Below, one piece after another: positions 24,959 to 63,262 of a stretch of DNA of 64,000 nt; position 1 is the first letter of the stretch, and each line of letters starts with the position of its first letter. This stretch comes from Candidatus Norongarragalinales archaeon (GTDB taxonomy: Archaea; Micrarchaeota; Micrarchaeia; Norongarragalinales; Norongarragalinaceae). Made by a program: the position numbers and the translations under genes. The stretch is from positions 352,001-416,000 of the forward strand of contig JAWABJ010000001.1 of assembly GCA_038884755.1 (NCBI GenBank). The letters run 5' to 3'. Below the pieces are notes generated by a model, which was not told the origin of the DNA, ran no database searches, and saw only the letters and a list, made by a program, of their open reading frames with translations.

Positions 24959-25099
24959 GCCGGAGTGGCAGAGCGGTTATTGCGCTAGTCTCGAAGTCAG
25001 GCTTTTCTTTTGCGAAAAGAAAAGCCCGACGCGGCAAAAGAAAACCGTACGAAAACTAGTGTCCGCAAGGACTCGGGAGTTCGAATCTCTCCTCCGGCG
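24959..25099 (+). tRNA. tRNA-Ser(CGA) with 58-nt intron at 37/38 (24996..25053)
   Basis: GCCGGAG/CTCCGGC acceptor, CTAGT-CT-CGA-A|intron|A-ACTAG, long variable arm GTCCGCAAGGAC, GTTCGAATC, G73. Confidence 0.92.
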
Positions 25100-29115: not shown

Positions 29116-29329
29116 GCCTCAGTAGCTCAGAGGTAGAGCGTTCGCCTCGTAGCCCAGCTTTTCTTTTGTAAAAGAAAAGCTAGGCGCTGCAAAAGAAAAC
29201 AGTTTGCAGACGCCGGAAAAGAAAAAGCTTGGTGCGGTAAAAGAAAACCGCGCGTAGTAAAAGAAACGAATAGTTTTTCTTTGGCGGCGAGCCAGCGAAA
29301 GGTCGGGAGTTCAAGTCTCCCCTGAGGCT
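29116..29329 (+). tRNA. tRNA-Thr(CGT) with 142-nt intron at 37/38 (29152..29293)
   Basis: GCCTCAG/CTGAGGC acceptor, TTCGC-CT-CGT-A|intron|A-GCGAA, BHB helix CTCG/CGAG, GTTCAAGTC, U73. Confidence 0.92.
29152..29283 (+). repeat. Five tandem AAAAGAAA(A) hairpin modules in the tRNA-Thr intron
   Basis: Motif starts at 29170, 29191, 29217, 29239, 29259; complements at 29159 and about 29275. Confidence 0.85.
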
Positions 29330-63129: not shown

Positions 63130-63262
63130 GGGCCCGTAGCTTAGCCTGGTGGAGCGTTCGACTGATAGGGCTTTTTACCCCTGGGGAAAAACCCCCGAAA
63201 AAAAAGGGAGAAAAAGGCTTTTTGAAATCGAAAGGTCCCCGGTCCAAATCCGGGCGGGCCCA
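63130..63262 (+). tRNA. tRNA-Ile(GAT) with 59-nt intron at 37/38 (63168..63226)
   Basis: GGGCCCG/CGGGCCC acceptor, TTCGA-CT-GAT-A|intron|A-TCGAA, T-arm CCCGG-TCCAAAT-CCGGG, A73. Confidence 0.88.

Follow-up and report, generated by a model that had tools for sequence, protein, structure and literature searches.

The BHB introns of Micrarchaeota, as described by Fujishima et al. (2011, PMC3239211), are numerous and occupy canonical as well as T-loop positions of tRNA genes, and the epsilon2 EndA treated in that study cuts both strict and relaxed BHB motifs. For the transposed tRNA introns of Thermoproteales (Fujishima et al. 2010), PMC4033280 and PMC4090602 report similar intron sequences in different tRNAs and positions, gains after speciation, and a proposed DNA-level route of transposition. 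Archaeal tRNA introns are given there as usually shorter than 100 nt (PMC4033280), compared with 142 nt for the intron treated here, and the mechanism of their gain and movement is called 'still unknown' (PMC4090602). Furthermore, the bacterial BoxC, PIT and TM-ECO repeats have been presented as class II triplex repeats, in which a pyrimidine tract, a loop, a purine tract, a second loop and a mirror purine tract follow one another (Holder et al. 2015, PMC4666352). According to the same source, the TM-ECO consensus is G/C-rich with a 3-nt second loop and is always intergenic, the ITxF search rule asks for a stem of 6-15 nt and loops of 1-6 nt, and a stable triplex in vivo was not seen for the bacterial motif; the word 'tRNA' is absent from its text (PMC4666352). 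The BHB intron, the movement of introns in Thermoproteales and the bacterial class II triplex repeat are each already known. No paper linking a triplex-type repeat to archaeal introns, or describing such a repeat in archaeal tRNA introns, was found among open-licence PMC and bioRxiv main texts.

The intron examined here lies in the tRNA-Thr(CGT) gene of a Micrarchaeota (DPANN) genome (G000; 927 kb, 93% complete, G+C 51%), within a window of 64,000 nucleotides (C1:352001-416000). It has in common with the introns described in PMC3239211 the 37/38 position, the BHB helix and an orthologous epsilon2 enzyme, and differs from them in being built from repeats and, apparently, gained and rebuilt within one genus. 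Compared with the Thermoproteales introns of PMC4033280 and PMC4090602, the moving unit is smaller than the intron, occurs in both orientations and also outside introns, and has a hairpin-plus-mirror-tail design. With BoxC, PIT and TM-ECO as described in PMC4666352, the unit shares the order of tracts, a patchy copy number among close relatives, the lack of a linked transposase, and inverted pairs undergoing partial deletion. However, the archaeal repeat is A/T-rich with one central G-C, has a long self-pairing second loop, is targeted to stable-RNA genes and forms introns. In our judgement, the intron is quite probably pieced together from parts of three or more copies of this 35-50-nt repeat, which is likely to spread as folded single-strand DNA and to be tolerated in tRNA genes only by way of excision by the relaxed epsilon2 EndA.

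The tRNA-Thr(CGT) gene occupies positions 29116-29329 of the window on the plus strand and gave an Rfam tRNA match of 49.8 bits with a 144-position insert. From this match and the comparison with orthologues, the 5' exon (tRNA positions 1-37) was placed at 29116..29151 and the 3' exon at 29294..29329, both on the plus strand. The 142-nt intron between them (29152..29293, plus strand) lies at 37/38, and the intronless orthologues of G003 and G004 join the exons exactly there, so that the intron proposed by the first-pass annotation is supported by the Rfam insert and by the orthologues alike. The insert at 37/38 between intact exons agrees with an archaeal BHB intron, and the 4-bp central helix has 3-nt bulges and an outer intron helix of just 2-3 bp. 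Its exon side (CTCG, 29146..29149, plus strand) pairs with CGAG at 29288-29291 in all four positions, as had been claimed, with a pair probability of 0.61 at 37 °C and 0.37 at 60 °C. A DNA contig of a different organism (run X2, with other flanks) skips exactly 29152-29293, which is uninformative on splicing; run X1 has no coverage of the intron, and X3 contributed no match. Inside the intron, no Rfam family other than tRNA reached the gathering score, no C box or D box of a tRNA-Trp-type intron-encoded guide was found, and there was no ATG-started ORF, the frames being open by chance; the earlier statement that it holds neither guide nor ORF was right. Its length is less exceptional than had been supposed, as the orthologous intron of G001 measures 129 nt and the Leu(TAA) intron of G000, with five A-tracts, about 127 nt. 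The gene might be regarded as a decaying pseudogene with an unspliced intron, in which repeats accumulate freely as tRNA-Thr(TGT) reads ACG, and Thr(CGT) may indeed be redundant through wobble. Both exons, however, retain every cloverleaf pair, and the central helix is the only one with 4/4 pairs among eight orthologous introns, several others having 1-3 of 4 in strict register, which suggests selection for splicing. A decaying gene is hardly credible.

The motif AAAAGAAA occurs in the intron at 29170, 29191, 29217, 29239 and 29259, with the reported spacing of 21, 26, 22 and 20 nt. The genome background is 0.028 copies per 142 nt, and more than three copies arose in none of 20,000 dinucleotide shuffles of the intron; accordingly, the five copies are far beyond chance. 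The fold of the intron gave z = -4.3. Copy 1 forms the 3' arm of a stem of 11 bp, in which its G pairs with C29163 (P = 1.00; mean unpaired probability 0.17), and copy 2 is partly contained in a stem (0.65). Copy 3 falls in a linker that the MFE structure leaves unpaired (0.78), copy 4 is the sole clean loop (1.00), and copy 5 (0.49) pairs with the 3' U-tract. The picture of a constant loop on five variable stems was thus not borne out by the pair probabilities; the proposed GCCGG/TTGGT stem is absent from the MFE structure and the CGT/ACG stem at copy 5 is not formed. Similarly, the 3' tract, which had been thought able to pair with any loop, pairs with copy 3 (P 0.27) or copy 5 (0.33) but not with copies 1, 2 and 4 (0.00).

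Each unit of the dispersed repeat consists of a T-tract with one central C, a short loop, a complementary A-tract with one central G, a linker of 6-20 nt and a second A-tract. By the strict pattern, G000 holds 43 units, 38 of which lie in or abut stable-RNA genes, while these genes with 20-nt margins make up about 1.5% of the genome. Twenty-one sense and five antisense units (5/26 antisense) are inside tRNA introns. Eight more lie within 8 nt of a tRNA end (six at the 3' and two at the 5' end), all with the hairpin proximal, and the two in 5' flanks sit upstream of tRNA genes in reverse orientation. In addition, two units are in 23S, one in 16S and one in RNase P RNA (C1:670718-670749, inside the gene), where it may be either spliced out or borne as an additional helix. 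The remaining matches are one weak, hairpin-distal match 17 nt from a tRNA and four elsewhere; a unit was also found ahead of a protein gene. In a hand-made list of 43 tRNA genes of G000, a full unit was present in 20 of the 28 that bear introns, including all three Thr genes and the only listed His, Cys and Tyr genes. In the window, the tRNA-Ser(CGA) gene (24959-25099) was said to have two units in its intron; the two AAAAGAAA copies are there (25015 and 25036), but both fall within a single complete unit (25003..25044, plus strand). Of the 68 genomes of the order, 50 contain the pattern, as do 92 of the 301 in the phylum; a reversed-pattern control was near zero, and two large families were almost without it (f14 0/54, f13 1/75). 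The copy number ranged from 0 to more than 60 between genomes of the order and from 5 to 48 matches within the genus. A narrow subfamily pattern gave seven loci over the genome collection, all in Micrarchaeota (one in Norongarragalinales), and two repeat patterns gave no matches in viral contigs. Arrays of one hairpin with two to four tails are common: relatives show two or three tails within introns, in 3'-flanking sequence and in antisense orientation, and four near-identical tails stand in the Leu(TAA) intron of G000; these loci were chosen as arrays, so that no frequency follows from them. Such arrays are a normal by-product of the repeat, and the five-tract count of the Thr(CGT) intron is of minor weight.

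Several other loci were noted. Units border box C/D-like small RNAs on the 3' side, hairpin first, at L062, L063, L066, L069 and C1:116635-116674 of G000 (boxes recognised by eye). The 16S/23S locus of G000 (L031, C1:680988-687599) combines three repeat units with weak group I intron matches (51.8 and 27.2 bits) and with ORF-bearing introns whose LAGLIDADG-like motifs were recognised by eye. In the window, the intron of tRNA-Ile(GAT) (63130-63262; about 59 nt) resembles a unit in its order of T-run, hairpin, A-run, C/G linker and A-runs but lacks the central C and G, and is perhaps a related or decayed unit. In relatives, at L007 and L010, a unit stands behind a duplicated 5' tRNA-gene fragment with the intact gene about 90-100 nt downstream, and at L020 a different hairpin repeat takes that place; the arrangement looks like insertion with a template jump-back. 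The single Lsm gene of G000 (C1:247905-248099) is directly upstream of tRNA-Ala(GGC), which has two introns and three units. A tRNA-Val(CAC)-like gene (C1:425045-425116), the 3' acceptor strand of which pairs poorly, possibly contains a further intron or is a broken copy.

The second A-tract, or tail, mirrors the purine arm of the hairpin. For tail A-run lengths, 43 informative units were closer to mirror order and 7 to direct order (91 usable units), and the G count was equal between hairpin arm and tail in 91 of 94 units. Within ten linker subfamilies, mirror covariation reached r = 0.89 and 0.69, with none of 10,000 permutations as high (67 of 94 units, a few duplicate rows included), while direct-repeat pairing of the run lengths gave -0.18 and -0.15 (n = 67). 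With one row per distinct linker, mirror rho was 0.70 and 0.73 compared with -0.05 for direct order (n = 95). In all of these comparisons the covariation rows are related by descent and the loci were picked by a pattern requiring both tracts. Covariation within subfamilies indicates that the mirror symmetry is being maintained. A direct repeat or an alternative Watson-Crick switch was considered as the reason for the tail and rejected, since direct run-length pairing is about zero. In addition, the linker ends self-pair, at least two terminal pairs being found in 38 of 95 linkers compared with 9% in shuffles (0/5,000). Such end pairing would fold the tail back so that it runs antiparallel to the purine arm. 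As judged from sequence, the mirror tail is the signature of a class II intrastrand triplex, with a pyrimidine-motif form predicted on the other strand. The order given by Holder et al. (5' pyrimidine tract, purine tract, 3' mirror tract) was found in the first unit of the Thr(CGT) intron and in the family-wide covariation, whereas that first unit, with a stem of 9, falls outside the ITxF rule through its second loop of 12 nt. The evidence for an RNA third strand in purine-motif triplexes, as reported in PMC7583470, is mixed, and antisense copies exist; DNA would therefore be the likelier carrier of the triplex fold.

These results bear on the possibility that introns are merely shuffled among tRNA genes, units travelling as parts of whole introns through recombination between similar exons or, on the model put forward for the Thermoproteales, through reverse splicing followed by reverse transcription, the mirror tail being an inherited accident. 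Near-identical units do occur at various positions of different tRNAs, no dedicated transposase was seen to follow the units, and tRNA intron transposition has been published, with its mechanism unknown (PMC4033280, PMC4090602). However, units in both orientations, and units outside introns (eight tRNA flanks including two reversed 5' ones, rRNA, RNase P RNA and ahead of a protein gene), are not explained in this way; nor is the mirror covariation within subfamilies, which points to maintenance, and a reverse transcriptase is encoded in just 3 of 68 genomes of the order. We consider shuffling among tRNA genes alone to be unlikely and return to a dispersed repeat.

The history of the site was followed in the family, where Thr(CGT) was found by its 5'-exon pattern in 14 of 26 genomes. 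Six of the 14 orthologues are intronless, and the other eight have introns of 30-142 nt with 0-5 A-tracts, representing four unit subfamilies and one plain hairpin. A tree of EndA and RtcB (two genes) gave (G004,(G003,(G001,(G000,G002)))) with support of 0.93-0.98. The basal congeners G004 and G003 are intronless at Thr(CGT), G001 and G000 share an intron, and no Thr(CGT) match was found in G002 (69% complete). This distribution is read most simply as a probable gain of the intron inside the genus, in the common ancestor of G000 and G001. The intron of G001 consists of a forward unit and a complete inverted unit with the tails inward. Different occupants were also found at one T-loop site, that of tRNA-Ser(GGA), where G000 carries a CCTTGG unit and L098 one of the CTAGGCG subfamily.

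CsrB-type sponge RNAs carry many GGA motifs in hairpin loops. The first-pass annotation had compared the Thr(CGT) intron to them, so that the excised and circularised intron would be a multivalent protein sponge with AAAAGAAA sites. The two have in common a repeated short purine motif in a folded RNA, and five copies of AAAAGAAA stand out in a genome of this G+C content, copies 2-4 being mostly unpaired. Moreover, pairing between the linker and the stretch behind the tail was slightly above that of shuffled partners (mean -5.3 vs -4.6 kcal/mol, p 0.002, n = 76), and an Lsm gene is present in G000. On the other hand, copy 1 is fully paired and the tail lies in a stem of -5 kcal/mol or below in just 34 of 76 units compared with 42% of shuffled pairs. 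The tail length mirrors the paired arm, which a single-stranded protein site would not need. Arrays also occur in flanks and in antisense, where the copies read U-rich in RNA. When the tract number was compared across the orthologues, as had been suggested, it was not conserved, and six of the 14 lack the intron altogether. In contrast to CsrB/RsmZ, the intron has no GGA-loop array, its one GGA being outside any hairpin loop, it is not a free-standing conserved gene, its motif is partly in stems, and CsrA was not found in G000 (93% complete). A sponge is therefore very improbable, and Lsm may be a secondary binder of the excised intron. The intron is likely to have grown by repeat copies landing on one another rather than for soaking up protein, and to this extent the accretion proposed earlier is supported, as its pieces can be traced against the sister intron of G001 and a copy from another genus.

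The first piece, module 1, is a complete unit (29152..29200, plus strand), 46/49 identical to a tRNA-Leu T-loop intron of G015 (L005), which belongs to another genus, and 42/49 to L007. Its hairpin (29156-29181) has the T-tract at 29159-29167 and the A-tract at 29170-29178, followed by the linker at 29179-29190 and the tail at 29191-29199. It belongs to the CTAGGCG-linker subfamily, of which G000 has no other copy and which is present elsewhere in G001 (C34); as the module is symmetric (A4GA4 twice), it is uninformative on mirror versus direct order. The next piece (29201..29216, plus strand) is a fold-back spacer, an inverted copy of the module-1 linker and first tail bases, with a 7-bp perfect inverted repeat at 29187/29209 that extends further with one bulge. 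Module 2 (29217..29250, plus strand) is a remnant of an older unit that keeps the A-arm, linker and tail and has lost the T-arm, and it agrees at 30/34 positions with the first unit of the intron that G001 has at this site. It is followed by an extra linker and tail containing copy 5 (29251..29267, plus strand), for which no convincing source was found (best 17/22). The last piece (29268..29287, minus strand) is the tail remnant of an inverted unit with the hairpin deleted, 19/20 identical to an inverted unit that G000 has in its Arg(TCT) T-loop intron and 18/20 to the complete inverted unit of the G001 intron. The following order of events would account for these pieces and rests on one sister intron, that of G001. 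An inverted pair of units may have been gained at 37/38 in the ancestor of G000 and G001. In the line of G000, a unit of another subfamily would then have landed on the 5' splice junction, where it took the place of the old unit's T-arm. Finally, a fold-back copy of the linker and one more tail may have been added, and deletion of the inverted unit's hairpin would have left a perfect BHB helix.

The units might alternatively be DNA signals that the host keeps at stable-RNA genes, such as a site of polymerase pausing, a mark bound by protein or a protection of tRNA genes from viral integration, with the extra tails tuning the signal. The tight tie to stable-RNA genes, the fixed hairpin-proximal polarity and the constraint seen in the maintained mirror symmetry are in agreement with this, and disruption of tRNA genes has been linked to integrating elements in PMC3239211. 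It is difficult to reconcile, however, with a copy number that falls to zero in the order and varies so widely in the genus, with a Thr(CGT) site that is empty, filled or refilled, and with whole families lacking the pattern (f14, f13). A host signal seems quite unlikely to us, and the spreading repeat is again preferred.

The splicing machinery of G000 comprises an EndA of 388 aa, which matches the Micrarchaeum epsilon2 EndA 4FZ2 (E 2e-125) with Tyr, His and Lys aligned, which we take to be the catalytic residues, and an encoded RtcB. Units are present in all Thr genes and in the only listed His, Cys and Tyr genes, and in the rtcB gene of G007 a unit creates a stop; such introns must be removable, and we infer that unit-built introns are spliced. 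A BHB intron of 30-51 nt inside the Tyr codon of the active-site motif of rtcB was observed at 6 of 18 readable loci, four more being unreadable. These are L196, L198, L200, L201, L202 and L203 (G018, G013, G022, G315, G007 and G009, respectively), and rtcB of G000 has none; the intron of G007, of 51 nt, is a complete repeat unit.

REP, REPIN and BIME elements are short palindromes that occur as singlets, inverted doublets and mosaic arrays and are moved by RAYT (Y1) transposases. The archaeal repeat resembles them in its short palindromes, found as singlets and inverted doublets, and in its mosaic arrays, but has no GTAG-type foot and does have a mirror tail. Moreover, no Y1 transposase, reverse transcriptase or TnpB was found in G000 (93% complete). 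In the order, Y1 was present in 18 of 68 genomes, and units were found in 11 of 18 Y1-positive compared with 39 of 50 Y1-negative genomes. No mobilising enzyme of these kinds (Y1 or reverse transcriptase) tracks with the units across the order. At the Thr(CGT) junction, where eight filled sites were compared with six empty ones, no target-site duplication of the kind that accompanies the terminal inverted repeats of MITEs was seen. Separately, two tyrosine recombinase genes were observed behind tRNA-Leu(CAA) and tRNA-Leu(TAA) of G000 (C1:432611-433108 and 568632-569135), both of which have unit-built introns; one tyrosine recombinase open frame beside the tRNA-Leu genes has 1053 aa.

A mechanism can be proposed for the spreading repeat. 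In single-stranded DNA, the unit would adopt a class II (purine-motif) intrastrand triplex in which the linker makes the turn, and this fold would be what is recognised or what stalls copying. Host replication or repair, or an enzyme acting in trans, may then write the unit beside structured RNA genes, hairpin first. Inside a tRNA gene, the unit would persist when its junctions form a BHB acceptable to the epsilon2 EndA. Once established, the intron would be nearly neutral and could collect new units, fold-back copies and deletions, and the only likely job of its RNA would be to fold so that EndA and RtcB can remove it. Carried further, and put forward only tentatively, the unit could be a minimal mobile element coded by a three-stranded DNA fold alone, copied without a transposase of its own to the edges of structured-RNA genes, and could continually supply archaea with new introns in tRNA, rRNA and even mRNA. 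Thr(CGT) would then be a snapshot of one copy inserting onto another at a splice junction.

The locus adds to what was known: a gain of the intron can be dated, and the landing of one unit on another can be followed through its pieces. It further provides a defined unit of 35-50 nt with a testable structural rule, the mirror tail and self-pairing linker, and a natural example in which covarying sequences speak for a triplex and not for Watson-Crick pairing. The series of filled, empty and refilled states of a single site in one genus is relevant to the origin of archaeal tRNA introns.
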